64,000 bases of DNA from an uncultured delta proteobacterium (GTDB lineage: Bacteria; Desulfobacterota; BSN033; UBA1163): positions 699,294 to 763,293 of the forward strand of contig CAVXWK010000001.1 in assembly GCA_963765435.1 (NCBI GenBank). The letters are read 5' to 3'. Below, one piece after another: positions 2,563 to 41,949 of this stretch (positions are counted from its first letter, which is position 1; each line of letters opens with the position of its first letter). The position numbers and the translations under genes are program-made. The notes beneath the pieces were generated by a model that worked only from the letters and a program-made list of their open reading frames with translations, did no database searches and had not been told where the DNA came from.

Positions 2563-3480
2563 TCAGAGATAATCCAGCCACTCCCGATAGTTCGGGTTTT
2601 TCCCTTTGACGATTTCAAAAAAGGCAGCTTGGAGCTCCTTGGTCACTGGGCCTGGCTTCCCATTTCCGATAAGACGATCATCGACCTCGCGGATGGGCGT
2701 CAACTCAGCGGCCGTCCCCGTAAAAAAGGCCTCCTCGGCCGTGTAAAGCTCATCTCGAGTAAATCGCTCCTCCAACAGGGTGATCTTCTTTGCCTTGGCG
2801 ATCTGAATCACAGAATCCCGGGTGATGCCGGAGAGAATGGAGGTGAGCGGCGTCGTTTTCACCATCCCGTTTTTTACCATGAAGATATTCTCTCCGCTGG
2901 CCTCGGAGACATAGCCCTCGGTATCGAGCATCAGAGCCTCGTCGTATCCCATCTTCGTGACTTCTCTCTTGGCCAGAACGGAGTTGACATAATTGCCGCA
3001 AATCTTCGCTTTGGTCATCATCACGTTGACATGGTGACGGGTGAAGGAGGAGACCTTTACCCGGATTCCCTTCTCTAAAGCTCCTTCTCCCAGATAGGCC
3101 CCCCATGACCATGTGATAATCGCCGCTTGGATCGGGTTATCCCCCGGATAAACCCCCATGAGCCCGTCTCCAATGAAGACGATTGGCCGGATATAACCTT
3201 CTCTCAATTGATTCACCCGCAATGTCTCTTTGCAAGCGTCTGAAATTTCTCTCTTGGAATAAGGGATTTTGATATCTCCGATCTGAGCCGAATCGAAGAG
3301 TCGATCGACATGCTCCCTTAATCTGAAGACTGCGGATTTCCCGTCATGACAGAGATAACATCGGATCCCTTCAAAGACAGCCAAGCCGTAATGAAGACTA
3401 TGCGTCAGGATGTGGACGTTGGCCTCTTCCCAAGGGATCAATTTCCCATTCATCCAGATTTTCGATACTTTCTCCACCAT
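2563..3480 (-). CDS. ilvE: branched-chain amino acid aminotransferase
   Basis: 305 aa; class IV aminotransferase motifs ([20 protein letters not shown]). Confidence 0.9.
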
Positions 3481-3674
3481 GAGCTGATCCCTCCATTAGA
3501 AATTACAAGTGCCGGGACGGTCTTTACGTTACGGCTAAGAAACCCGATCGATATAACCTCCAAGAAGTATCATTTTCTATCCTATTTTAGGTCAATTGTC
3601 AAAAGAAAGTTTACAAGTTCTCTCTACTATGTTAATTGTTAAGCCACTATCGAAGCACAGGCAGGAGGCCCAAA

Positions 3675-4619
3675 ATGGAAAGGACGTTGATTACAGGAGG
3701 AGCAGGATTTCTTGGCTCTCATCTCTGCGATTTTTTTATTGCTCAGGGACACGAGGTGATCTGTATGGATAACTTGATTAAGGCAGAAAACATTGAAAAT
3801 ATCGCTCCCCTCATGGGACATGAGAGATTCAAATTTATCAAATACGATGTAACCGAATATCTTCATGTGGAGGGGCGGCTCGACCATGTTCTCCACTTTG
3901 CATCCCTCGCCAGTCCAAAGGATTACCTGGATTATCCCATTCAGACGTTGAAAGTAGGGTCATTGGGCACTCATAAAGCACTCGGTTTGGCAAAGGAAAA
4001 GAAAGCAAATTTTCTCCTCGCCTCGACTTCTGAAGTCTATGGAGACCCCATGATCCATCCCCAGGCCGAATCGTATCCGGGAAACGTCGATCCTGTTGTG
4101 CCAAGAGGCGTCTATGACGAAGCCAAACGGTTTGCGGAAGCTATCACCATGGCCTACCATCGAACTCACGGTCTTCGAACTCGAATTGCGAGGATCTTCA
4201 ATACGTATGGTCCACGCATGAGGCTTGACGACGGAAGGGCCTTGCCCAACTTTATGGTTCAGTCATTGAAGGGAGAGGACCTCACGGTTTATGGAGCGGG
4301 CACGCAAACCCGAAGTTTCTGCTATGTGGACGACTTAATTGAGGGAATCAAAAGGCTTCTTGATTCCGACGAAGCAGAACCCGTCAACCTCGGAAACCCT
4401 GAGGAGATCACTGTGCTGGATTTCGCCAAAGAGATCATCCGCTTGACCGGAAGTAAGAGTCGGATCCTTTTCTGTCCCTTACCCCAGAATGACCCCAAAG
4501 TAAGACAGCCGGATATCACCAAGGCGAAGACGATATTAGGCTGGGAACCTAAAGTGAGCCGCCATGAAGGGTTGAAGAGGACGCTCCTTTATTTTAAGAA
4601 GAAGCTGCCTGGGGCTTAG
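3675..4619 (+). CDS. NAD-dependent epimerase/dehydratase (UDP-glucuronate decarboxylase/UDP-xylose synthase-like)
   Basis: [11 protein letters not shown] Rossmann motif; YDEAKR catalytic motif; RBS GGAGG upstream of ATG 3675. Confidence 0.85.
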
Positions 4620-10921: not shown

Positions 10922-11374
10922 TTACTCCTTAAACTTTTCTTTCTCAAGGGCCTCGATTTTTTCTAACCGTCTCTTGTGCCTGCCCCCGGCAAACGGGGTT
11001 TCCAACCAAACCTTCACGATTTCCTTTGCCAATTCCTTCCCGACGATTCGGCCACCGACGATGAGTATATTGGCGTCGTTATGCTCTCGACTACAACGGG
11101 AAGAGTAAAGATCGTTCGCCAGAGCCGCTCTGGTTCTCGGAAATTTATTGGCTACAATGGACATACCAATGCCGGTGCCGCAGACCAGGATCCCCTTTTC
11201 CAAATCCCCCCGAGAGACCTTCTCTGCTACCAGAACCCCAAAATCCGGATAATCCACTGAATCTTCGTTGAAGGTACCCATGTCGATGGGTTTGAAACCG
11301 AGGGATTTCAAAAAGGCCTTCAGCTCTTCCTTGAGCTCGAAGCCCCCATGGTCACAGGCCAAACCGATCTGCAT
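10922..11374 (-). CDS. rpiB: ribose-5-phosphate isomerase B
   Basis: MQIGLACDHGGFELK, LVCGTGIGMSIVANK. Confidence 0.85.
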   Translation of the reverse strand: MQIGLACDHGGFELKEELKAFLKSLGFKPIDMGTFNEDSVDYPDFGVLVAEKVSRGDLEKGILVCGTGIGMSIVANKFPRTRAALANDLYSSRCSREHNDANILIVGGRIVGKELAKEIVKVWLETPFAGGRHKRRLEKIEALEKEKFKE

Positions 11375-20105: not shown

Positions 20106-20792
20106 TCAGGATGTGCTTATAGCAGCAGCCTGACTTTCTTCCTCGATATATTTTATTAAAATCTCGTAGATCTTGTCGTCAATCAGGCCAACTTTGTGAA
20201 GCCACGCCATGGCATCTGAAATCTTAAACAGGACATGCGGCTCAATCCGGGATGACCGGAGCCTCTGCTGACCCCCCTGCTCCCTATCCAAGAGTACGAC
20301 CAGCTCGTTCACCACACCTCCCTGGTCTCTGATCACCTCTGCCGTTTCAATGACGCTTTCACCCGTGGTGATGAGATCATCGATCACCAGGACCCGATCA
20401 TTACGTTCCAGAATTCCCTCAACCTTCTTCCTTACCCCGTGTTCTTTCCTGGCCTGCCGGTAGTAAATCAGGGGAATGCCTAATTTCTGGCTCACCACTG
20501 TTGCAAAAGGAACCCCCGCTGTCGGAACGCCCAGAATCTTATCGATTTTATCCTTCCCGATCTCGTTGAGAATGATTCGGGTCAAAGAATTGGCAATCCA
20601 GTCCATGGTGGTCGGGCTGGAAATAGTTTGCCTCAGATCGATATAGTATGGGCTTTTCTTCCCGGAAGCCAGGATGTAGTCACCAAACTTGATCGCATTG
20701 TTCTTGATCAGGAGAATCCCCACCTGCTTCATGAGGAAAAGCTTTTCCTCCGTCCAAACCATCTTTTCGATCTCTTCGAGTCGTAGAATCAT
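20106..20792 (-). CDS. pyrE: orotate phosphoribosyltransferase
   Basis: FGDYILASGKKSPYYIDLR and VLVIDDLITTG PRTase motifs; start at MILRL (an upstream M at 20828 also possible). Confidence 0.7.
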   Translation of the reverse strand: MILRLEEIEKMVWTEEKLFLMKQVGILLIKNNAIKFGDYILASGKKSPYYIDLRQTISSPTTMDWIANSLTRIILNEIGKDKIDKILGVPTAGVPFATVVSQKLGIPLIYYRQARKEHGVRKKVEGILERNDRVLVIDDLITTGESVIETAEVIRDQGGVVNELVVLLDREQGGQQRLRSSRIEPHVLFKISDAMAWLHKVGLIDDKIYEILIKYIEEESQAAAISTS

Positions 20793-20879
20793 GATTGATC
20801 TTTTATTAAACTTTTTTATGAAAGTCAAGAAAAATTAAGTGAGATTTCTGAAAAAGTGCAGAAATCTCTGATTACACTG

Positions 20880-21070
20880 ATTAGGAAACGATTACACCGA
20901 TCTAGTCCCCTTTCATCCCCTTTGTCAAAAGTGGGAAACCTCTCTCCTATTGGCAAACGGGAGAAGTCTCTCCACTCTCTTTACCGATACGGAGAAACCT
21001 CTCTCCCCCCTTCAGCAGAGGGGAAAAACCCCTCTCCTCCCTTTGGAAAAGGGAGGCTGGGAGGGATTTT
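20880..21070. repeat. cluster of 4-5 tandem degenerate 30-bp stem-loops (CCTCTCTCC-N-GGGAGAA type)
   Basis: gggaaacctctctcc / gggagaagtctctcc / ggagaaacctctctcc / ggggaaaaacccctctcctcc seen directly. Confidence 0.5.
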
Positions 21071-21105
21071 ACAAGATCGTTTCAAACGGTTAGGTTGACC
21101 AGAAA

Positions 21106-21276
21106 TCACTTGTCAAGAGGACCCCTTACACCGAGCACGTTCTTTGAGGCAACATGAGTGTAGATCATGGTGGTCTGGAGTTTTTGATAGCCGAGCAGTT
21201 CTTGACTCGTCCTGAAATCATATCCATTTTCAAGCAGGTATCCCGCAAACCGCTGTTCCAATGTATGGACAGAAAC
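21106..21276 (-). pseudogene. intI: integron-integrase (IntI-like tyrosine recombinase) C-terminal remnant B
   Basis: rc translation [56 protein letters not shown]; stop immediately upstream, no start codon. Confidence 0.6.
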
Positions 21277-21347
21277 CTATTTTGTTATCCCCGTTTGCTG
21301 CACTGCAGGCCTAAATGCCCGCTTTGACAGGGGGGGAAGTATTATGG

Positions 21348-21755
21348 TTAAAGCGGCTTTTTCATGTAAAGATTGTCAAGGGGGCTTTTTGGAATACTTA
21401 CCATATCTCTTATCACATGGGTGTAGATCATTGTGGTTTCAAGATGCTTATGACCCAGTAAACTCTGGATCTCCCTGATATTCACTCCGTTCATTAAAAG
21501 ATGTGTTGCGAAACTGTGTCTGAGGGTATGCACGGATGCGTGTTTCACAATGCCTGCCTTTTTCAGGGCCTCTTTTACAGCATTCTGAATCGCCTTCTCG
21601 CTTACATGGTGGCGTCTTATCTTTCCGCTTCTTGGGTCAACCGAGCGTTTTGATGAGGGGAAAACATACTGCCAGCCCCATTCTTTTGCGGCATTTGGAT
21701 ATTTGCGTTCCAGAGCATCTGGAAGGTAGACCTCCCCATGTCCTTCTGAATAGAC
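21348..21755 (-). pseudogene. intI: integron-integrase (IntI) C-terminal remnant A (N-terminal ~200 aa missing)
   Basis: [41 protein letters not shown] (IntI-specific patch) ...[12 protein letters not shown]...TTMIYTHV...SPLD; in-frame stop at 21756-58. Confidence 0.7.
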
Positions 21756-22171
21756 CTATTGTGAAAAAAAGGGGCTGATTTTAGGCTTAGAAGAGCAGTT
21801 TTGGGGTTGAAATCCCCCTGAGCAGGAATTCTATGGATGGCCATGGATACACGCAGAGTACCTGGAATTCCCTATAGCCCTAATTTTACCGATGAAAGTG
21901 GCGATTTAAGCCCAAAAAACACCTATTCCTGGAGCATATCTGATTGAATTTCAATAAGTTAGCTTGGTCCGACCCGAGCCGCAGAGCGGGGCATAAATAT
22001 TATTAGTCAATAGAAATACTTACTGAGGTTTCCACCATAAACACCACATCGCCGGGAATTGAGACTGGCCGATAAAAGCGAGACTGATGCAGTCCTCGGG
22101 TATGCCAAAGTGTCTGTCGGGACAGGCGTTACAAAGCACGATAAATTACTACTTGACAAGTTAGTTTACTA

Positions 22172-22939
22172 TTGGTATGTACTTTACCAATGGTAAACCA
22201 ACTTTTTATGAGTGTAGTCTTAAAACAAAAACATCAATCCCCTGGCCATTACAAGGAGGAACTTACATTGCTTCAGCAGGATAAACATAAAGCGGTCTGC
22301 CGTCAGAGAAGAGAAAGGGAAAAGAATCAACGTATTCAGAGTATCATTGACGCCGCCAGAAAAGTGTTCTCTTCAAAAGGTTATCTTAAATCGACCATGG
22401 ACGAAATCGCCATGGCCGCCGAGATAACCAAACCCACCATCTATTTACACTTTAAAACCAAGGACGATCTTTTATTAAGCCTCATGCAACCTTTGATTGA
22501 CGATATTCGGAACAGGCTGAAAATCGTTGAAGCAAAACTTCTGTCCGGGAAGATCAAAGACGGCCGCGGCCTGATCACCGGTATCTTCAGCGCCTTCTAT
22601 CACGGATATGAATCCTTGCCTGAAACATTTCGCATCGTTCAATTATTTCAGCAACGGGACCTGATAAGTGAACTAAGACCGGAAATCCGTTCTGCTTTGG
22701 ATGACAGGGGCCGGATCAACTTCGCTCTGTGCCGCCGTCTGCTGACAAAGGGCATGGAGAGGGGGTTGATCAAAAAGGTTGATATCTATGCGATGGCGGA
22801 TGTGATCTGGGCGTTGATGGTTGGCGTGATTCAACTGGAAGATTTTAAAGTCGATGACCAGAAGGGTCATAGATTGAAAAAAAACACGCTGGGTCTGGCA
22901 CAACGCCTGATTGTGGAAGCGCTGACCTGCGATACATAG
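22172..22939 (+). CDS. TetR/AcrR-family transcriptional regulator
   Basis: HTH region KSTMDEIAMAAEITKPTIYLHFKTKDDLL; start uncertain. Confidence 0.8.
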   Translation: MVCTLPMVNQLFMSVVLKQKHQSPGHYKEELTLLQQDKHKAVCRQRREREKNQRIQSIIDAARKVFSSKGYLKSTMDEIAMAAEITKPTIYLHFKTKDDLLLSLMQPLIDDIRNRLKIVEAKLLSGKIKDGRGLITGIFSAFYHGYESLPETFRIVQLFQQRDLISELRPEIRSALDDRGRINFALCRRLLTKGMERGLIKKVDIYAMADVIWALMVGVIQLEDFKVDDQKGHRLKKNTLGLAQRLIVEALTCDT

Positions 22940-22987
22940 AAAATATCATTTGAACAGGAAACAGGAGAAACAGAAAGGGAGAAACGA

Positions 22988-23086
22988 GGGGACGTTGTTG
23001 AAAGTTTACACTTTAGAATTTACTGAAATTCGATATTAGGTATGTTAGGCTAAGGCTGAAAAGGTGAACGTTTTCAACAACGTCCC
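22988..23086. repeat. 99-bp imperfect palindrome (16-bp perfect arms GGGACGTTGTTGAAA / TTTCAACAACGTCCC), possible attC-like site
   Basis: arms seen directly; right arm resembles 3' part of cassette repeats (TTTTTCAACAGTCCC at 28165). Confidence 0.4.
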
Positions 23087-23139
23087 TTTTTTCCTCTTCT
23101 CTACTACGGGTAATCAACGAAATAATAGGGAGAAGATCC

Positions 23140-23562
23140 GTGCTTATGAACTATAATGACACATTAAAAGAGCGTAGCCCATTTGTTAAATTTCTTGGAT
23201 TGCAAATAATCAAATTTGATAATGGATATTGCCACTCTAATTTGGAAATAAAAGACAATTTTTTGAATATCCATAAAGCTGTACATGGCGGGGTTATATA
23301 CTCCCTGGGAGATGTTGGGATGGGTGCTGCCCTGTATTCCACACTCAAAAAAGATGAAGAAGCATCAACCATCGAAATAAAAATAAACTATTTAAAACCA
23401 GCCTATAGCAAGATACTCGTCTGCGATGCAAAAGTCATTCAAAAAGGTAAAAGCATCGCCGTATTGGAGGCGGAAATACGAGCTGATGATATTTTAGTTG
23501 CAAAGGCCCTCGGTACTTATTCAATATTCAAAGCTAAAGATGATCCAAATATGCCACTTTAA
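23140..23562 (+). CDS. PaaI-family hotdog thioesterase
   Basis: VHGGVIYSLGDVGMGAA motif; very AT-rich gene. Confidence 0.75.
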   Translation: MLMNYNDTLKERSPFVKFLGLQIIKFDNGYCHSNLEIKDNFLNIHKAVHGGVIYSLGDVGMGAALYSTLKKDEEASTIEIKINYLKPAYSKILVCDAKVIQKGKSIAVLEAEIRADDILVAKALGTYSIFKAKDDPNMPL

Positions 23563-23637: not shown

Positions 23638-23830
23638 ATGACCCGTCCTCTTCGCATAGAACACCCTGGTGTCGTGTATCATGCTACCTCTCGCGGCAAC
23701 GAAAAGAAGAAAAGAAGGCCGTCGAGAGATATGCGTGCAGGCAGAGCGAGATTGCCCGGCACCTGAGTCTGCACGTCTCTCCTGTGAGCAATATTCTCCG
23801 TGTTAGAAATTGGCACCATAACAAAAGACC
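23638..23830 (+). pseudogene. remnant of IS200-like Y1 (REP-associated-type) transposase
   Basis: MTRPLRIEHPGVVYHATSRGN N-terminus then premature stop; downstream frame has EIARHLSLHVSPVSNILRV HTH-like piece. Confidence 0.45.
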
Positions 23831-23908: not shown

Positions 23909-24373
23909 GTGGAGATTAAGAAGATATGCGTGTTAGGTGCGGGATTAATGGGTAACGGTATTGCTCAGGTTTGTGCTCAGGCGGGCTATGAAGTCAGCCT
24001 ACGGGATATCGAAAAGATGTTCCTCGATAACGGGATGAATACGATCAAGAAAAATCTGAGCCGCGAGGTTGCAAAAGGAAAGCGAACCCAAGAAGACGCA
24101 GATGCGATTCTGGGCAGAATAAAACCAACGCTCGATCTCAAGGAAGCCGCAAAAGATGCAGACATCATTATGGAAGTCGTGATTGAAGTCATGGATATCA
24201 AGAAAAAAGTCTATCAGGAACTGAAAGGAATTGTAAAACCTGATGGCCTTATTTTTAGCAATACATCCAGCTTGAGCATCACGGCGATGGCTGCAGCAAC
24301 GGACAGACCAGATAGATTCTATTGCAAAGAGTACAAAAGACGGGCTCTTGATCTCCGGGACAAAATGCTATAA
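23909..24373 (+). pseudogene. 3-hydroxyacyl-CoA (3-hydroxybutyryl-CoA) dehydrogenase, 3'-truncated
   Basis: ICVLGAGLMGNGIAQV NAD-binding N-terminal domain; sequence departs from family after SNTSSLSIT and stops; C-terminal domain absent. Confidence 0.6.
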
Positions 24374-25127
24374 CACGAATGCACCAAAGTCTAAATATAC
24401 CGTCCTTTATGGGACCGAGGATCCAACCGCCGATGATGCAGAAAATCCAATGTCTCAAAGCCTCATTCCTTTAAAAGATCCGACGATCACTGTAGAACGG
24501 GTTTTTATCCCAACCGTTCCAAAGGTTCATATTGGTAAAGAGACTTTCAAGGAAACACTTGTTCCCAATAAAAGAATACTCTGCGATGTGGGCAAGGGGA
24601 AATTCGGCCTGTTTGAAGGGCTTGCTGTCGAAAGGATAGGTATTGCCATATCCGCCGTCTGCCAGTGCTGGAGCTCTCTGATGCACGCTACAATCTATTC
24701 GAATTTGAGAAAACAGTTTGGCCAAGAGGTAAGCAGATTCCAGGGTGTAGGCTTCTTGCTGGCTGAATATTATGCAAAGGTTTCGACTATAACATTTGCT
24801 ACCCTTGCCTTCGCCCGGGGTTATGATGAAGCCGTTAAAAAGCACAAGGGCCATCTGCCTGATATACTCACTCAACAATATGTAATGGCTGCCTCGCAGA
24901 TGAAATATCAAGCAACACATCTTTCTGAACGATGCTGCTATGAGATGTGTAATATTATGGGCGGGAACGGCCTTAATGATAATACCTTAATGGATGACCT
25001 GATGGGTTTATCGCGAATCCAGGAGATAATAGGCGGATTCAGAGAGATTCAGCTTTCATATCATGATGGGCGCCATAAAAAAGATGTGGAGATTGATATA
25101 AACTATCCTTTGCTTATCCTATTCTAA
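24348..25127 (+). pseudogene. acyl-CoA dehydrogenase C-terminal fragment (N-terminal domain missing, degenerate)
   Basis: RIGIAISAV...FGQEVSRFQGVGFLLAEYYAKV ... GGNGLNDNTLMD resembles ACAD middle/C-terminal domains only. Confidence 0.5.
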
Positions 25128-28031: not shown

Positions 28032-28196
28032 AACTAACAGGGTCAGGTCTCAACAATCAACAAGGCTTTTTCACAAGTTAAGACCAGGCCAATTTCCAGA
28101 CCCCAAAGCCTTCACTGACAGAAAATAATTTTCTATTTTCGAACCGGCAGAAGAAGCGATTCTGAAAAGGCGACTTTTTCAACAGTCCCTTTACAT
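28032..28196. repeat. attC-like cassette-boundary repeat, family 1, copy 1
   Basis: about 150-bp imperfect repeat shared with 28785-28965 and 29575-29718; ends near GTTAAAA. Confidence 0.55.
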
Positions 28197-28212
28197 GTTA
28201 AAATAGATCTCC

Positions 28213-28386: not shown

Positions 28387-28654
28387 AAATATAACCCCTC
28401 TTGGCATCTGGCTTTTTGTAAAAGAAACGGAATACTTTTTGAGCTATAAAGATTATCCTTATTTTATGGATCAAAGGTTGCGTTCCATACAAAATGTTCA
28501 GTTGCTTCACGGTTATCATTTATATTGGCCAGAATTGGATATTGATTTAGAAATTGATAACCTCGTAAATCCTCAAAAATACCCTCTGAAATCAAGCGCT
28601 ACAAAAAAGCGTCCGGCAACTCATTCAATGGGACGGCGAATAGCCTCCCGTTGA
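28343..28654 (+). CDS. DUF2442-family small protein (partner of DUF4160)
   Basis: MKSLRRRKSISVSVENITPLGIWLFVKETEYFLSY...LYWPELDIDLEID; overlaps upstream gene by 44 nt. Confidence 0.7.
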   Translation: MKSLRRRKSISVSVENITPLGIWLFVKETEYFLSYKDYPYFMDQRLRSIQNVQLLHGYHLYWPELDIDLEIDNLVNPQKYPLKSSATKKRPATHSMGRRIASR

Positions 28655-28784
28655 TTCTGTCGTTATACAATGGTTTGAAGGTCTTGGCAAACGGTGGTCT
28701 TCGCTACCATGAGCTGGCCGATGTCCAGCGCTGGGCGGAGTTTGTTAGGGTGAGGGGTCAGCCCTTGACGCAGGACAAATGGAA

Positions 28785-28965
28785 GCAAACAGGGTCAGGC
28801 CTCAAAAATCAACAAAGCTTCTTCAAAAGTTGAAACCAGGTCTTGGTACCAGACCCAAACATTTTCAACGACAGAGAATCATTTCCTATTTTTGATCCGG
28901 CAGAAGAAGCACTTCTTTAAAAAGCACCAATTTCTACAAGCTTGTTGCAAGGAAAATAGGTTGTT
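28785..28965. repeat. attC-like cassette-boundary repeat, family 1, copy 2
   Basis: shared core ...CATTTCCTATTTTTGATCCGGCAGAAGAAGCAC... Confidence 0.55.
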
Positions 28966-29574: not shown

Positions 29575-29718
29575 CGAAGATCAAGGTTCTTCAAAAGTTG
29601 AGACCAAGTTTCGTGACCAGACCCGGGGACTTCCAATGACAGAGAATCATTTCCTATTTTTGATCCGGCAGAAGAAGCACCTTTTAAAAAAGTGACCTTT
29701 TCTACAAGCTCGTTGGAT
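29575..29718. repeat. attC-like cassette-boundary repeat, family 1, copy 3 (ends in GTTGGAT core)
   Basis: GTTGGAT at 29712-29718 fits GTTRRRY 6 bp before the SDR start codon. Confidence 0.55.
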
Positions 29719-29723
29719 GGCCC

Positions 29724-30596: not shown

Positions 30597-30600
30597 TCAT

Positions 30601-30665
30601 TGCGAGGAGCGAAGCGACGTGGCAATCCCGCGAGATTGCTTCACTTCGTTCGCAATGACATGTTG
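30601..30665. repeat. imperfect palindrome (attC-like) downstream of the SDR cassette
   Basis: GTCATTGCGA...TCGCAATGAC outer arms with inner GCAATC-CCGCG-AGATTGC palindrome. Confidence 0.4.
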
Positions 30666-30946: not shown

Positions 30947-30989
30947 TTACAACGGACGCTGTACCTCCCGGTGAGCCATACCGTTGGGC
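30947..30989. repeat. short attC-like site (TTACAAC ... GTTGGGC)
   Basis: inverse-core-like TTACAAC and core-like GTTGGGC bracket a CAACGG/CCGTTG stem. Confidence 0.45.
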
Positions 30990-31058
30990 TATCAAGCTCG
31001 CTGGAGCAGGCAGCCTAAACCCAAAGGGTGTTGAGAATAAAAAAGGAGGGGAAATACG

Positions 31059-33469: not shown

Positions 33470-33583
33470 GTCTCAGGATGCTTTATATATGAGCATCTCA
33501 TACCGGGAGGGGTCAAGATCCCCCAAAAACCACCCCCTCATTGTAACGGTGAGCTTTCTCTAAAGGCTCTTATCATTTTGCTC

Positions 33584-33616
33584 TTGACAATAGTAAACAA
33601 ATTGTTTACTATTGTC
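33584..33616. promoter_or_regulatory. sigma70-like promoter inside a 15-bp-arm perfect palindrome (putative HigA operator)
   Basis: TTGACA-17nt-TACTAT; GACAATAGTAAACAA|TTGTTTACTATTGTC ends 2 bp before higB ATG. Confidence 0.5.
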
Positions 33617-36047: not shown

Positions 36048-36908
36048 TCATGCTGCAAGTTGCCTTGTATAGAACTGCCGCTCATAGACAACCGGAGAAA
36101 GGTACCCCAGCCGTGCTTGCCGTCTTTGCCGATTGTAGAATACCTCGATGTATTCCGTGATCTCCCGGATGGCCTGCTCTCTCGTCTTGAAGCGACAGTG
36201 ATGGACAAGCTCATTCTTGAGCGTACCCCAGAAGCTCTCCATGGGAGCATTGTCGTAGCAGTCGCCCTTCCTGCTCATAGATGCTCTCATCTTGAACTGA
36301 TCCACCAGCTTCCGGTATTCATGGGCGCAGTACTGACTCCCACGATCCGAATGGTGAATCAGGCCTGCTCCGGGCCGTTTGGCTGCCACGGCTCTGAACA
36401 GAGACTGGCTCACCAGGTTCTTGGTGAGACGATTGCCCATGGCATATCCAACGATTTCTCCCGTGCAGAGGTCCTTATGCCCTGCCAGATAGAGCCAGCC
36501 TTCTTCTGTGGGGATATAGGTAATGTCGCTGACCCAAACCTCGTTCGGCGTCGTTGCCTTAAACTGCTGATTGAGCAGATTCTGTGCCACAGGCAGAGCA
36601 TGCTTCGAATCCGTGGTGGCCTTGAACTTCCTCTTCTGCTTACACCGTAACCCAAGCTTCTTCCTGATCCGTCTGATCCGGCAGATCCCGACCTTTACAC
36701 CCTGTTCTTTGAGCTCATGCTGTAATCTCTCTGGACCGCACGTCTCACGGGTCCTCTTGTGGGCGGCTTTTATCTCTACTTCCAGCCTTCCCTCTTCCAG
36801 GACACGTTTGGAAGGCTTGCGCCTGAACCATTGGTAATAACCGCTCTTGGATACACGCAGAATACGGCACATCATCCCAATACAATACTTGAATCGCATT
36901 GCTTTCAT
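36048..36908 (-). CDS. IS3-family transposase OrfB (DDE integrase core)
   Basis: SDITYI...HSDRGSQY...DNAPMESFWGTLK motifs. Confidence 0.85.
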   Translation of the reverse strand: MKAMRFKYCIGMMCRILRVSKSGYYQWFRRKPSKRVLEEGRLEVEIKAAHKRTRETCGPERLQHELKEQGVKVGICRIRRIRKKLGLRCKQKRKFKATTDSKHALPVAQNLLNQQFKATTPNEVWVSDITYIPTEEGWLYLAGHKDLCTGEIVGYAMGNRLTKNLVSQSLFRAVAAKRPGAGLIHHSDRGSQYCAHEYRKLVDQFKMRASMSRKGDCYDNAPMESFWGTLKNELVHHCRFKTREQAIREITEYIEVFYNRQRRQARLGYLSPVVYERQFYTRQLAA

Positions 36909-38567: not shown

Positions 38568-39497
38568 TCATCGTTTCCCCAAGATCATGGCGAGCAAAGC
38601 CATTCTTACAAAGACACCGTTTTTCACCTGCCTGAAATAGGCTGCTCCTGGATAGGCATCCACTTCCGGCCTGATCTCGTCCACTCTTGGAAGCGGGTGA
38701 AGAATGGTGATCTTCTTTTTAAGCTCTTTCAGGAATTTTTCATCGATGACGTAATAGCCCTTCACCCGCTCGTATTCGGAAAGATTCTCAAAACGCTCCT
38801 TTTGAATCCGCGTCATGTAGACGAGAGCGCTTTCAGAGGCTGCTTTCCGGAAATCCTCTGTCTCTTCGATCTCAATCCCTTTTTGTTTGAGACTGGAGAC
38901 GATTTCCTCCGGCATCCGAAGGCTGTTGGGTGAAACAAAATAGAGCCGCGCTTGAAAGAGGGACAAAAGCTCGACCAGTGCGTGGACCGTCCGGCCGTTC
39001 TTTAAATCGCCCACCATGGAGACTGCCAAATTCTTGAGCGAGCCCAATTCTTTATGAATCGTATAAATATCAAGGAGGGCTTGAGTGGGGTGCTGCCCTG
39101 CCCCATCGCCTGCATTGATGACAGGAATCGGAGCTGCCTCGGCTGCTTCTTTGGCCGATCCGATGCGCGGATGGCGGATGACGATGGCATCTGCATACTG
39201 GGAGACCGTCCTGGCTGTATCCGCAACGGTCTCACCTTTCGCCGCCGACGAGCTCTCTGCCGATGCCATGCTGATCACCCCTCCGCCCAAACGCTGCATG
39301 GCCGTCTCAAAGGAGAGTCGGGTCCGGGTGCTTGGCTCGAAGAAAAGCGTCGCCAAAATCTTCCCTTTCAAAAGAGTTAAAGAGTCCTTTTTCTTGAGTT
39401 CCTTCTCAAAATCGGACGCAATTCTAATGATCCCTTCGACATCCTTCTTTGAAAATTGATTTCCATGAAGGATATCCTTTCCTTTAAGGCTACCCAT
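38568..39497 (-). CDS. pyrB: aspartate carbamoyltransferase catalytic subunit
   Basis: STRTRLSFE, HPLPR motifs. Confidence 0.9.
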   Translation of the reverse strand: MGSLKGKDILHGNQFSKKDVEGIIRIASDFEKELKKKDSLTLLKGKILATLFFEPSTRTRLSFETAMQRLGGGVISMASAESSSAAKGETVADTARTVSQYADAIVIRHPRIGSAKEAAEAAPIPVINAGDGAGQHPTQALLDIYTIHKELGSLKNLAVSMVGDLKNGRTVHALVELLSLFQARLYFVSPNSLRMPEEIVSSLKQKGIEIEETEDFRKAASESALVYMTRIQKERFENLSEYERVKGYYVIDEKFLKELKKKITILHPLPRVDEIRPEVDAYPGAAYFRQVKNGVFVRMALLAMILGKR

Positions 39498-39603: not shown

Positions 39604-40911
39604 TTAGGAATTTTCGCCTGTGATGATTCCATCTCTTGCCACAATTCGTCCTGCGACAATTGTCAGTATTGCTTTTCCTTGAAGCTCCCAGCCATTAAAA
39701 GGACAATTTCTACCCTTGGAATAAAAGCGATTGACGTCCACCCTCCATTTCCAATCCAGATCGATCAAGGTCAGGTCCGCTTTAGCTCCTGGTCTGAGGC
39801 TGCCAACTCCCAGTACCTCGAGCCCAAAAATCTCGGCTGGGATGATCGTCATCTTTGCAATTGCTTGATTCAATGTCAAGATACCCGGATGCACCAGATA
39901 AGTTAAGACCAGGCCCAGCGTTGTCTCCAGGCCGATCACGCCGAAGGGAGCTTGATCCCAGGATCTGTTCTTCTCTTCGGGCGAATGAGGGGCATGGTCG
40001 CTCGCAATAATGTCAATAGTGCCGTTGGCAAGCCCTGCCCTCAAAGCCTCCACATCTCCTTCCGATCTCAATGGTGGATTTACTTTTGCGTTCGGTCCGA
40101 TTTCCTGGGCCATTTTCTCCGTCAGCAGAAGATGCTGCGGGGTCGCCTCTGCTGTCACATTGACTCCCCGTTTTTTCGCATCGGCAATGAGCTCTACCGA
40201 CCTGGCAAGGCTCACATGTGAGATGTGAAGCCGTGCTCCCGTTTTCTCGGCCAATTCGATATCTCGCTCGATAAACCCGGCTTCGGAGGTATAAGGATTC
40301 GCGCCCGGTGAAGCATACGGCATTTGGGGAGAGGAGGAGAGGATTCTTTGCCTGTAGAGTGAAGATTCTTCACAGTGTGGACTGACCAGGATTCCGCATT
40401 CCTTGCCTTTGACAAGTGCGCTTCGCATGAGCCTCCGGCTTGGAACGGGATTCCCATCGTCAGAAATCGCTCTGGCCCCGGCTTCTTTCAGTTTGGCAAT
40501 ATCCGTCAGCCTGTAGCCCATCGTTCCCTTAGTAATGGCTGACTTCGAGTAGAAATTAATGACGCTGTTCTTCTCTGCAATATTCAGTAAACGACAAAGC
40601 CGCGCAGGCGTATCTATCGGAGGAGCGGTGTTGGGCTCTGCTATGACGCTGGTGAATCCGCCGGCTGCGGCGGCCGATGAGCCGGTGTGAAGGTCTTCTT
40701 TATACTCCTGACCGGGCTCTCTGAAGTGGACGTGAGCGTCCACTAAGCCCGGTACAAGCAGCTTTCCGCTTGCGTCAATTATCGTAGCATCCGGAGCTAT
40801 AATATTCTCAGCAATCTCACTTATTTTCCCGTCATCAATCAAGACGTTGGATACCCGAGGGCCCGCTAACTCCGCAGCGATTAAGCTGGCTTTCTTAATA
40901 AGGAGTTTCAT
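39604..40911 (-). CDS. pyrC: dihydroorotase
   Basis: VDAHVHFREPG metal-binding motif, 435 aa. Confidence 0.85.
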   Translation of the reverse strand: MKLLIKKASLIAAELAGPRVSNVLIDDGKISEIAENIIAPDATIIDASGKLLVPGLVDAHVHFREPGQEYKEDLHTGSSAAAAGGFTSVIAEPNTAPPIDTPARLCRLLNIAEKNSVINFYSKSAITKGTMGYRLTDIAKLKEAGARAISDDGNPVPSRRLMRSALVKGKECGILVSPHCEESSLYRQRILSSSPQMPYASPGANPYTSEAGFIERDIELAEKTGARLHISHVSLARSVELIADAKKRGVNVTAEATPQHLLLTEKMAQEIGPNAKVNPPLRSEGDVEALRAGLANGTIDIIASDHAPHSPEEKNRSWDQAPFGVIGLETTLGLVLTYLVHPGILTLNQAIAKMTIIPAEIFGLEVLGVGSLRPGAKADLTLIDLDWKWRVDVNRFYSKGRNCPFNGWELQGKAILTIVAGRIVARDGIITGENS

Positions 40912-41016: not shown

Positions 41017-41949
41017 CTACATAATCAGCGCCAAAAGGGCTTTTTGGGCATGGAGCCTGTTCTCTGCCTGGTCGAAGATAACGCTATTTTGCGAATCGGC
41101 CACTTCGTCCGTCACCTCTTCTCCCCGGTGGGCCGGCAAACAGTGCATGAAAAGATAATCCTCTCTTGCTTCTTTGACTAGCTTGGCGTTGACCTGGTAG
41201 GGTTTTAAAATTTTCACCCTTTTTTCGCGCTCCTTTTCCTTACCCATACTGGTCCATACATCCGTATAAACAATATCGGCTCCTCTCACAGCCTCCTTCG
41301 GATCATTCGTTACCTTCACCTTGCAACCGCTTCTTTTCCCCTCTTCCCTCGCCTCGGAGACCACCTGTGAATTAGGCTCATATCCTTTCGGACATCCAAG
41401 GGCGATATCCATTCCTACCTTGGAGCAGCCGTAGAGCAGGGAGTGGGCTACATTGTTGGCGTCGCCGACATAGGCAAGCCTCAATCCTGAAAACCGTCTC
41501 TTCTTCTCGTAAATGGTGAAAAGGTCAGATAAGCCTTGGCAGGGATGCGTGAAGTCTGAAAGCCCGTTGATCACTGGCACTTTGGAATATCTTACCAGAT
41601 CGATGATGGTCTGATGAGCAAAGACCCTTGCCATAATTCCGTTCACATAACGGGAGAGAACTTGAGCTGTATCAGCAACGGTCTCCCCGCGGCCTAATTG
41701 CAGATCGCTGGCATTCAGATAGAGCGCATAACCTCCGAGTTGCCACATTCCCACTTCAAAGGAAACCCTTGTTCGCGTGGACGGCTTCTCAAAGATCATC
41801 GCCAGCGTTTTCCCCTTTAAAAGAGGATGTTCCTCTCCGCGAAGCAATTGAGATTTCAATAGTTCCGCCGTCTTTAGGATCTGCTCAATTTCCTCCCTGG
41901 TTAAATGGAAAAGGCTATCTAACGATCTTCCTTTTAAGTTTACTGCCAT
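41017..41949 (-). CDS. argF: ornithine carbamoyltransferase
   Basis: STRTRVSFE, HCLPAHRGEE motifs. Confidence 0.9.
   Translation of the reverse strand: MAVNLKGRSLDSLFHLTREEIEQILKTAELLKSQLLRGEEHPLLKGKTLAMIFEKPSTRTRVSFEVGMWQLGGYALYLNASDLQLGRGETVADTAQVLSRYVNGIMARVFAHQTIIDLVRYSKVPVINGLSDFTHPCQGLSDLFTIYEKKRRFSGLRLAYVGDANNVAHSLLYGCSKVGMDIALGCPKGYEPNSQVVSEAREEGKRSGCKVKVTNDPKEAVRGADIVYTDVWTSMGKEKEREKRVKILKPYQVNAKLVKEAREDYLFMHCLPAHRGEEVTDEVADSQNSVIFDQAENRLHAQKALLALIM

Follow-up and report, generated by a model that had tools for sequence, protein, structure and literature searches.

Two truncated integron integrases of different lineages upstream of pyrE, a possible record of integron replacement and later deletion

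Upstream of pyrE in an uncultured delta proteobacterium (GTDB lineage Bacteria; Desulfobacterota; BSN033; UBA1163), the 3' ends of two integron integrase (IntI) genes lie head to tail, and the locus raises the question of how two such truncated genes came to stand side by side next to a biosynthetic gene. The DNA analyzed here, called the window throughout, is a stretch of 64,000 nucleotides (nt) covering positions 699,294 to 763,293 of contig CAVXWK010000001.1 (assembly GCA_963765435.1). Its positions 11348–31713 are 100% identical to JBKQSF010000056.1 (29,191 nt), an NCBI contig of a metagenome-assembled genome (MAG) that is shorter than the 64-kb window and probably represents a separate assembly. 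An original prediction, made from the sequence letters, had described two tandem, N-terminally truncated IntI remnants at this place and had suggested repeated acquisition and erosion of integrons. Two such remnants do exist on the minus strand (Table 1), here called A and B, and the reading that we favor, at a probability of roughly 65%, is that they are non-functional 3' fragments from two IntI lineages that record the replacement of one integron by another and a subsequent deletion.

The nature of both fragments was examined by translation, profile searches and tblastn. Remnant A matched positions 189–315 of the 315 in the NCBIfam model TIGR02249 ('integron integrase') with an E-value of 6.9e−57 and 193 bits, against just 81–88 bits for the XerA (archaeal), XerD and XerC models, and its E-value to Pfam PF00589 was 5.9e−23. 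It ends in a TAA stop (21348–21350) and starts, as had been predicted, directly after an in-frame TAG (21756–21758), with IntI homology beginning at about 21749. The IntI-specific patch, an insertion in the catalytic domain (ALER..YP...W.W.YVFP...DPR...RRHH), is present and includes WGWQYVFP, as are the IYTHV motif and, among the catalytic residues, HxxR, H and Y only; the first catalytic Arg, the Lys and the N-terminal domains are gone. The best matches were thus neither Xer proteins nor phage integrases devoid of the patch. The loss is larger than the 200 or so residues first estimated: since the full-length relatives of A have 430–450 amino acids (aa), including an N-terminal extension of ~110 aa, remnant A lacks ~315 residues, and when such relatives were searched against the window by tblastn it corresponded to aa 316–448 of 448, with up to 89% identity.

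Remnant B ends in a TGA stop (21106–21108) and is interrupted by an in-frame TAG (21277–21279), so that the open reading frame (ORF) at 21106–21261 (51 codons) forms only a part of it; homology in the same frame continues across the TAG to ~21333–21340, which brings the remnant to about 75 codons rather than 51–56. TIGR02249 was again the best model (positions 259–314, E-value 1.1e−16, 61 bits), not far ahead of XerD (3e−13, 50 bits), and full-length A-type relatives aligned with B by aa 363/372–440 at 42–51% identity. Because it starts just past the region of the IntI patch, B cannot display the patch itself, and its assignment to IntI follows less from the profile than from its 79% identity to the B-type protein P0121 (locus L088), from the upstream frame of L088, which reads IDPRTLIVRRHH and in which the patch continues (IDPRT..RRHH), and from the full-length B-type genes in L095 and L097. 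The catalytic box of B has decayed, with HTLEQRF in place of HTLRHSF and LLGY in place of LLGH. Being fragments, A and B both fall below the curated full-length cut-off of TIGR02249 (265 bits), and neither holds the full tyrosine-recombinase set (R, K, HxxR, H/W, Y plus the N-terminal DNA-binding domains). Both remnants are real, chance being ruled out by the E-values.

That B is a second, different IntI C-terminus was also correctly predicted. Over their last 56 residues the two remnants are 49% identical at the aa level, and for each there exist far closer relatives of its own type; on this basis A and B are assigned to two different IntI lineages. The closest relatives of A are intI genes in Thermodesulfobacteriota/Deltaproteobacteria MAGs (L002–L006; 81–90% identity, L003 at 89%), followed by those of Nitrospirota, Omnitrophota and others, and A carries the A-type signature MNGVNIRE...RDM..P.SPLD. 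The tail of the B clade reads ...[STK]KN[VI]LGV[RK]SPLD, and full-length members exist in L095, L097, L100, L102 and others. In a first protein search all close relatives had seemed to be short proteins (top 120 hits for A, 9 hits for B), an impression refuted by the fetched loci, which hold full-length genes of both types; the short matches come from ORFs of pseudogenes, from fragments at contig ends and from the behavior of the word index. That the A-type arose when a B-type gene gained a new 3' module at codon 366 was likewise rejected, as the N-terminal parts are no more alike than the tails (48% overall vs. ~60% in the tail, with no step at codon 366). The N-terminal extension of ~110 aa (ILPEFQ.FL....DWQ.KQAE..) occurs in the full-length integrases of both lineages (L002–L030 and L095–L174, e.g., L003 9365–10708). 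A clade of IntI proteins longer by ~120 aa through gene fusion has been described (Nemergut et al. 2008, PMC2426708), and the extension of the A- and B-type proteins is comparable in size.

The order of events is approached through the junction between the remnants. The stop of A and the start of B are separated by ~10–15 nt rather than 86 nt, and the first recognizable B codons lie near the 'HP' that follows RRHH in intact B-type genes. In blastn, a single high-scoring segment pair spanning A, the junction and B connects window positions 21114–21743 with L002 (Thermodesulfobacteriota MAG130) at 80.6% identity over 635 nt. The A-type gene of L002 is nearly complete, consisting of an extension ORF (1432–1665) and a main ORF (1753–2727) that are apparently separated by a frameshift, and the B remnant follows. 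L103, a metagenome contig from the search seeded with a B-type protein, contains a complete A-type intI (2883–4190), its stop and a B tail (4212–4430) that begins within a few codons of the window position and has an in-frame TAG of its own. L005 keeps the first ~40 nt past the A stop (matching the window to 21306) and then runs into a different gene, and L003 and L006 diverge from the window at, or soon after, the A stop. In L023 (Nitrospiraceae) only the last ~15 B codons are left (MASKNILGVRSPLDK and a stop, 40 nt past the intI stop), and in L117, from a GC-rich lineage, a second, decayed tail with its start near the same codon lies behind intI. The arrangement of intI plus downstream tail was seen in only 5–6 of the 173 loci examined; the flanks past the B stop codon differ in every case of A plus B tail, and synteny with pyrE, oadA, the TetR cluster and other neighbors was absent from 80 intI loci, including those sharing the junction. 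The junction is shared with L002 and, in part, with L005, in which A is (nearly) full-length, and L103 has the same architecture; by the time A was cut back here, B had therefore been reduced to a stump that followed an intact A-type gene. An attC-like or terminator structure at the junction was considered and rejected: the imperfect stem CCGCTTTAAC/GTCAAAGCGG of the window is, by eye, not conserved in L002, L005 and L103.

The site itself is variable. In relatives, pyrB, pyrC and OTCase precede pyrE, and the spacer between OTCase and pyrE ranges from 54 nt (L176) and ~270 nt (L180/L181) to one or two extra genes (L177, L182) or three unrelated genes (L175). In the window the same interval holds a strain-specific insertion with the integrase remnants at its pyrE-proximal edge, and OTCase (38568–39497), pyrC (39604–40911) and pyrB (41017–41949) lie beyond it. 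L175 is syntenic with the window on both sides (78–84% nt identity), and a 24-codon B-type tail occupies the corresponding site upstream of its pyrE; over 80 nt (window 21101–21180) this tail is 81% identical to the window, a value similar to that of the flanking housekeeping DNA. By our own count on the alignment, 11 of the 15 differences between this tail and the window fall at third codon positions. The L175 tail and its mostly third-position differences indicate that both lineages had a B-type integrase gene here, one that stayed functional during much of the time since they separated, and B looks like the older resident of the locus.

The lesions in the two remnants appear to differ in age. 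The frame of A runs uninterrupted over 135 codons with all C-terminal catalytic residues kept, its pairwise ratio of non-synonymous to synonymous substitution (dN/dS) against L002–L006 is 0.05–0.10, the same as among those full-length genes, and its lineage-specific changes (3 synonymous and 5 non-synonymous) are too few for interpretation. A truncation that is recent relative to the divergence (dS ~0.7 to L002) apparently explains this better than a frame still under selection. B has been dead for longer than A, as judged from its in-frame stop and several radical changes in the catalytic box. Other A-type genes are damaged as well (that of L005 by an in-frame stop, that of L006 by a 3' frameshift), in agreement with the share of about one third of intI genes in genomes that are pseudogenes (Nemergut et al. 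2008, PMC2426708).

The favored history would comprise three steps. First, a B-type integron would have occupied the variable spot between OTCase and pyrE in a Thermodesulfobacteriota-like group, with the 3' end of its intI facing pyrE. Second, to go by the shared junctions, an A-type platform would have taken the place of all that lay upstream of codon ~366 in the B-type gene, giving a complete A-type intI, its stop and, within ~10 nt, the last ~75 B codons; as this composite exists elsewhere with a nearly full-length A, it could have arrived ready-made or been rebuilt by a crossover inside the B tail. Third, a later deletion or rearrangement, seen here in its resulting state, would have taken attI, Pc, any neighboring cassettes and the initial ~315 codons of A, leaving codon 316 fused to unrelated DNA that precedes a gene cluster under TetR regulation. 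The fragments have no present function and neither can make a recombinase, since A is without the N-terminal domains and the catalytic Arg and Lys and B has a stop and mutated catalytic residues; no recombination sites remain beside them.

Several observations weigh against this history in its simplest form. L002, L103 and L023 are MAG or metagenome contigs without synteny to the window locus, from which neither the direction nor the number of transfers can be read, and the event that truncated A has left no recognizable signature. Between the window and L002, the B tails agree at only ~70% of positions, with identities of 0.74, 0.84 and 0.51 at codon positions 1, 2 and 3 (0.70 at third positions of A in the same pair), whereas one inherited dead tail should differ evenly across codon positions, to about the extent of silent sites in A. 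The window-B is, moreover, a mosaic, closest to L002 beside the junction (0.69) and containing, further on, a 50-nt stretch that is 94–96% identical to the tails of L082/L094 vs. 78% to that of L002, with the limit that the segments compared are 50–240 nt long and the sample is small. The B tail of L175 is joined to a different upstream sequence, termed 'X', that also occurs in unrelated contexts (L082–L086), which leaves orthology of this tail with the window-B plausible. Because the window-B is mosaic and differs from the L002 tail mainly at third positions, a single ancient junction followed by neutral decay is too simple, and crossovers or conversion within the tail, or repeated junction formation, must be added.

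With regard to 'X', this AT-rich sequence of ~115 nt lies directly upstream of B tails in L175 (6673–6785), L082 (5874–5985) and L083–L086, where it is 87–88% identical, and it is joined to B at different codons and in differing genomic contexts. In the protein P0129 an N-terminal extension runs into the last 24 residues, the fusion lying at the LQTTM point also seen in L175. A further chimera is the integrase C-terminus of L049 (3695–3862), which switches from A-type to B-type at LLGH: before this motif it has 72–78% nt identity to A and 60–68% to B, and after it 68–78% to B and 49–63% to A. The tail divergence, the mosaic and the L049 hybrid suggest, at the level of sequence, exchange within the tail, which could proceed by conversion from functional B-type genes or by a crossover between an incoming A gene with its B stump and a resident B-type gene. 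Such a crossover would place the composite at a new locus with the distal tail and flank of the resident kept.

Taken further, these observations lead to an alternative that we regard as rather unlikely, in which composites form recurrently and in a directed way: A-type platforms would use the B tail as a homology arm, or a site near codon 366 of B-type intI, to replace resident B-type integrons, the composite being rebuilt in each host with a tail that is part donor and part resident. It would accommodate the recurrence of one architecture, with the B start at almost the same codon, in the window with L002, in L103 and in the GC-rich L117, as well as the coding-like divergence of the tails, the mosaic window-B, the different flanks past every B stop, the resident tail in the syntenic L175, and the L049 hybrid, by which A and B sequences do recombine. 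It has to contend with an architecture confined to so few of the loci examined, with a mosaic signal that is statistically weak in segments this short, with an A–B identity of 65–80%, low for RecA-dependent exchange, with a junction that has no attC-like site, and with the lack of any case in which donor and recipient states are both seen. If it held, an incoming A-type platform would displace the resident integron by crossing over with its B-type intI inside the conserved final ~200 nt, so that 'A gene + B tail' would be rebuilt per host, integrases with swapped C-termini such as that of L049 would arise now and then, and integron platforms would turn over by homologous exchange between integrase genes. 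It could also explain a conserved junction combined with a distal tail that resembles a recently functional, host-specific allele. That the B tail behind A-type genes is a travelling homology arm or recurrent recombination target rather than passive debris is accordingly a tentative idea, to be held at low odds.

No better placed is the original proposal, in which two integrons were acquired in succession next to pyrE and each integrase decayed in place independently. Its first half has fared well, as two IntI lineages are present, the spot upstream of pyrE is variable and a B tail stands at this position in one relative too. The second half, an independent decay of the two neighbors, has not, because the junction shared with L002 and L005 occurs with a (nearly) full-length A and without pyrE, so that B was already a stump behind an intact A, and because two independent deletions ending within ~10 nt of the A stop would be a coincidence; as a whole we consider this account improbable. 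Continued use of the fragments is very unlikely. A C-terminal peptide from the 135-codon A or the 51-codon B ORF might modulate an IntI encoded elsewhere, or the fragments might be a reservoir for swaps of C-termini, and the intact ORF of A with its low dN/dS, the short B-type tail ORFs that turn up in several samples with their catalytic motifs intact (P0123–P0127) and the hybrid in L049 would fit. A recent truncation explains the low dN/dS equally well, however, the window-B has a stop and has lost catalytic residues, promoter signals do not rise above chance, and the fragments are without most of the catalytic domain and all DNA-binding domains. A partial tandem duplication of one integrase 3' end followed by divergence can practically be dismissed, for although A and B are head-to-tail neighbors on one strand and correspond to the same C-terminal region, they share only 49% aa identity, have own-type relatives at 89% and 79%, and bear the A-type and B-type signatures, respectively, so that the lineage assignment already refutes it.

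The replacement-and-deletion history has partial counterparts elsewhere. Sedentary chromosomal integrons with decaying integrases are found at fixed housekeeping loci, e.g., beside ilvD in Xanthomonas, where the element is likewise anchored by a biosynthetic gene and the integrase is inactivated in many strains; at pyrE, unlike in Xanthomonas, an integrase trace is present at only 2 of the ~9 loci of sampled relatives and no array survives. Integrating elements that bring the 3' end of their target gene displace the original end, as phage 21 does in icd. The resemblance, an analogy only, lies in an intact gene with a foreign 3' end and the original 3' end as a stump downstream, but phage 21 produces a hybrid gene and leaves the stump at the opposite end of the inserted element, whereas A is foreign in its entirety and is immediately followed by the stump.

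Inactivation of intI by stops, frameshifts or large deletions, as in this locus, has been described for 'pseudo-integrons' (PMC2426708), which differ from the present case in that here two remnants of two lineages stand head to tail and their junction recurs elsewhere behind a nearly complete gene. Our literature search found no report of such a two-lineage, head-to-tail arrangement of intI. IntegronFinder distinguishes complete integrons, In0 elements and CALINs, the last with at least 2 attC sites and no nearby intact intI, and among them those close to an intI pseudogene (Cury et al. 2016, PMC4889954); the locus fits none of them, having no intact intI and fewer than 2 credible attC sites. 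Among 279 CALINs, 15 had a pseudo-intI at a distance of up to 10 kb (Cury et al. 2016, PMC4889954), and loss of intI is an accepted route to such degenerate elements, which the locus shares, but unlike a CALIN it has at most one marginal attC-like site. Pseudogenized integrases are thus well known and the locus is a further example of them; the recurrent gene with a foreign tail, together with the mosaic B, is its sole unusual feature. Its value would lie in being a dated record of an integron site by pyrE that was occupied, overwritten and then gutted, in which annotation pipelines label both stumps as 'tyrosine-type recombinase/integrase' genes. Should 'integrase + foreign C-terminal tail' prove systematic, it would offer new insight into the replacement of chromosomal integron platforms and the exchange of C-termini between lineages.

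Table 1. Features of the window discussed in the text (positions count from the first nucleotide of the window)
Feature	Position	Strand	Evidence
Remnant A, last 135 codons of an 'A-type' integron integrase	21351–21755	minus	translation, TIGR02249, tblastn
A-stop/B-start junction	21341–21350	minus	blastn segment pair with L002; L005 match; alignment
Remnant B, last ~75 codons of a 'B-type' integron integrase	21109–~21340	minus	translations, TIGR02249, tblastn, alignments
Non-coding stretch expected to hold attI, Pc and the ~315 codons that A lacks	21756–22171 (416 nt)		six-frame translation, tblastn, Rfam, blastn
pyrE (orotate phosphoribosyltransferase)	20106–20792	minus	Pfam Pribosyltran in the identical NCBI contig; 86–95% identical homologues (abundant)
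Strain-specific insertion of 17.7 kb between pyrE and OTCase-pyrC-pyrB	20829–38567		gene order of relatives, Pfam, blastn synteny
Palindromic short repeats with G/C runs (GGGAGG...CCTCCC, three 28-nt copies)	20856–21100		repeat search; terminator-like hairpins
Marginal attC-like site, the sole one in the window	28611–28668	+	R1 covariance model, 15.2 bits, E-value 0.38, filters off

Other parts of an integron were sought throughout the window. The original prediction had pointed to the 416 nt upstream of A as a place for residual N-terminal IntI motifs, attI or Pc. This stretch contains no ORF, no IntI homology in any frame and no blastn match in any fetched locus, and N-terminal IntI pieces were absent from the whole 64 kb (tblastn with 8 full-length IntI, word size 2, E-values up to 10; all remaining matches > 0.29). 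It also showed no promoter-like site above chance and no recognizable attI or Pc, the attI of these lineages not being known and therefore not open to direct search. With the 5' ends of both genes, the attI/Pc neighborhood is gone too, and at the right end of the stretch a TetR gene and a palindromic, operator-like site begin. A structured RNA or intron splitting the integrase gene was rejected for want of a meaningful Rfam match: at gathering thresholds Rfam reported only a tRNA elsewhere in the window, and in E-value mode on 20800–23200 it gave noise.

For the attC sites, a simple pattern scan (R''/L''–L'/R') of related loci gave 87 sites upstream of intI on the expected strand vs. 13 downstream, and a covariance model, R1, was built from 39 aligned attC sites of these loci, whose paired columns covary strongly (87% of cells paired vs. 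64% in shuffles). R1 recovered 40 sites in 15 related loci with 17–54 bits, all upstream of intI and on the opposite strand. In the window, searched with filters off, it found no credible attC array, and the marginal attC-like site, at the 3' end of a DUF2442 ORF, is on the strand where cassettes belonging to a minus-strand intI should lie. The simple pattern scan (R''/R' plus L''/L') gave 5 hits in the window vs. 3–8 in shuffles, i.e., no enrichment, and an energy-based hairpin scan proved too insensitive. Two candidates noted by eye (28806–28948 and 30948–30990) received no score with R1 and are not called attC. The layout of a functional integron platform, an attC array on the opposite strand and upstream of intI, is hence absent from the window. 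Three direct repeats of 135–165 nt (28036–28200, 28788–28952 and 29583–29720; 75–87% identical) each precede a small gene or gene pair, i.e., DUF4160/DUF2442, a toxin/CopG-antitoxin-like pair and an SDR gene, and a related copy is found in the cassette region upstream of intI in L005 (3483–3568); as attC sites they were discarded, being unscored by R1.

Between the B stop and the pyrE promoter region lie the G/C-run repeats, which form an insertion of ~205 nt relative to L175. Similar repeats were seen at the contig ends of the closest relatives, L178 (1–110) and L179 (1–30), and in L003 (16819–16854), L006 (8050–8091) and L014 (10531–10566). Six-frame translation of repeats of this kind yields spurious 'PLSKGG..' peptides that are frequent in MAG annotations. 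Just upstream of the promoter-like TTGACT of pyrE, a hairpin followed by a T-run (20841–20868, minus strand), conserved in L175 (6925–6955), may be a terminator insulating pyrE or a pyrimidine-responsive attenuator.

Beyond the integrase remnants, the insertion contains an acyl-CoA cluster (TetR, thioesterase, HpaB and thiolase) with pseudogenes, and then small toxin-antitoxin-like genes, SDR, HicB, a Band-7 protein and an IS3-family transposase; several pseudogenes apart from the integrases are thus present in this island. At 23909–25127 the N-terminal 154 codons of a 3-hydroxyacyl-CoA dehydrogenase (Hbd) run into the C-terminal two thirds of an acyl-CoA dehydrogenase, which looks like a deletion fusing two genes. 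A 42-codon ORF (23638–23766) presumably resembles the start of an IS200/REP-type transposase, though it has no Pfam hit. Directly after the SDR gene, a long imperfect palindrome (30597–30660, GTCATTGCGAGGAGCGAAGCGACG...CGTTCGCAATGAC) belongs to a repeat type that we take to be widespread in environmental genomes. ARAGORN called a 100-nt tRNA-Ser(aga) at 33498–33597 on the minus strand, which Rfam did not report at its gathering threshold; the call probably represents either a spurious prediction or a degenerate tRNA within the island. The IS3-family transposase (rve, HTH_21; 36048–36908, minus strand) lies near the OTCase-proximal end of the insertion and is a candidate agent of the rearrangements in the island.

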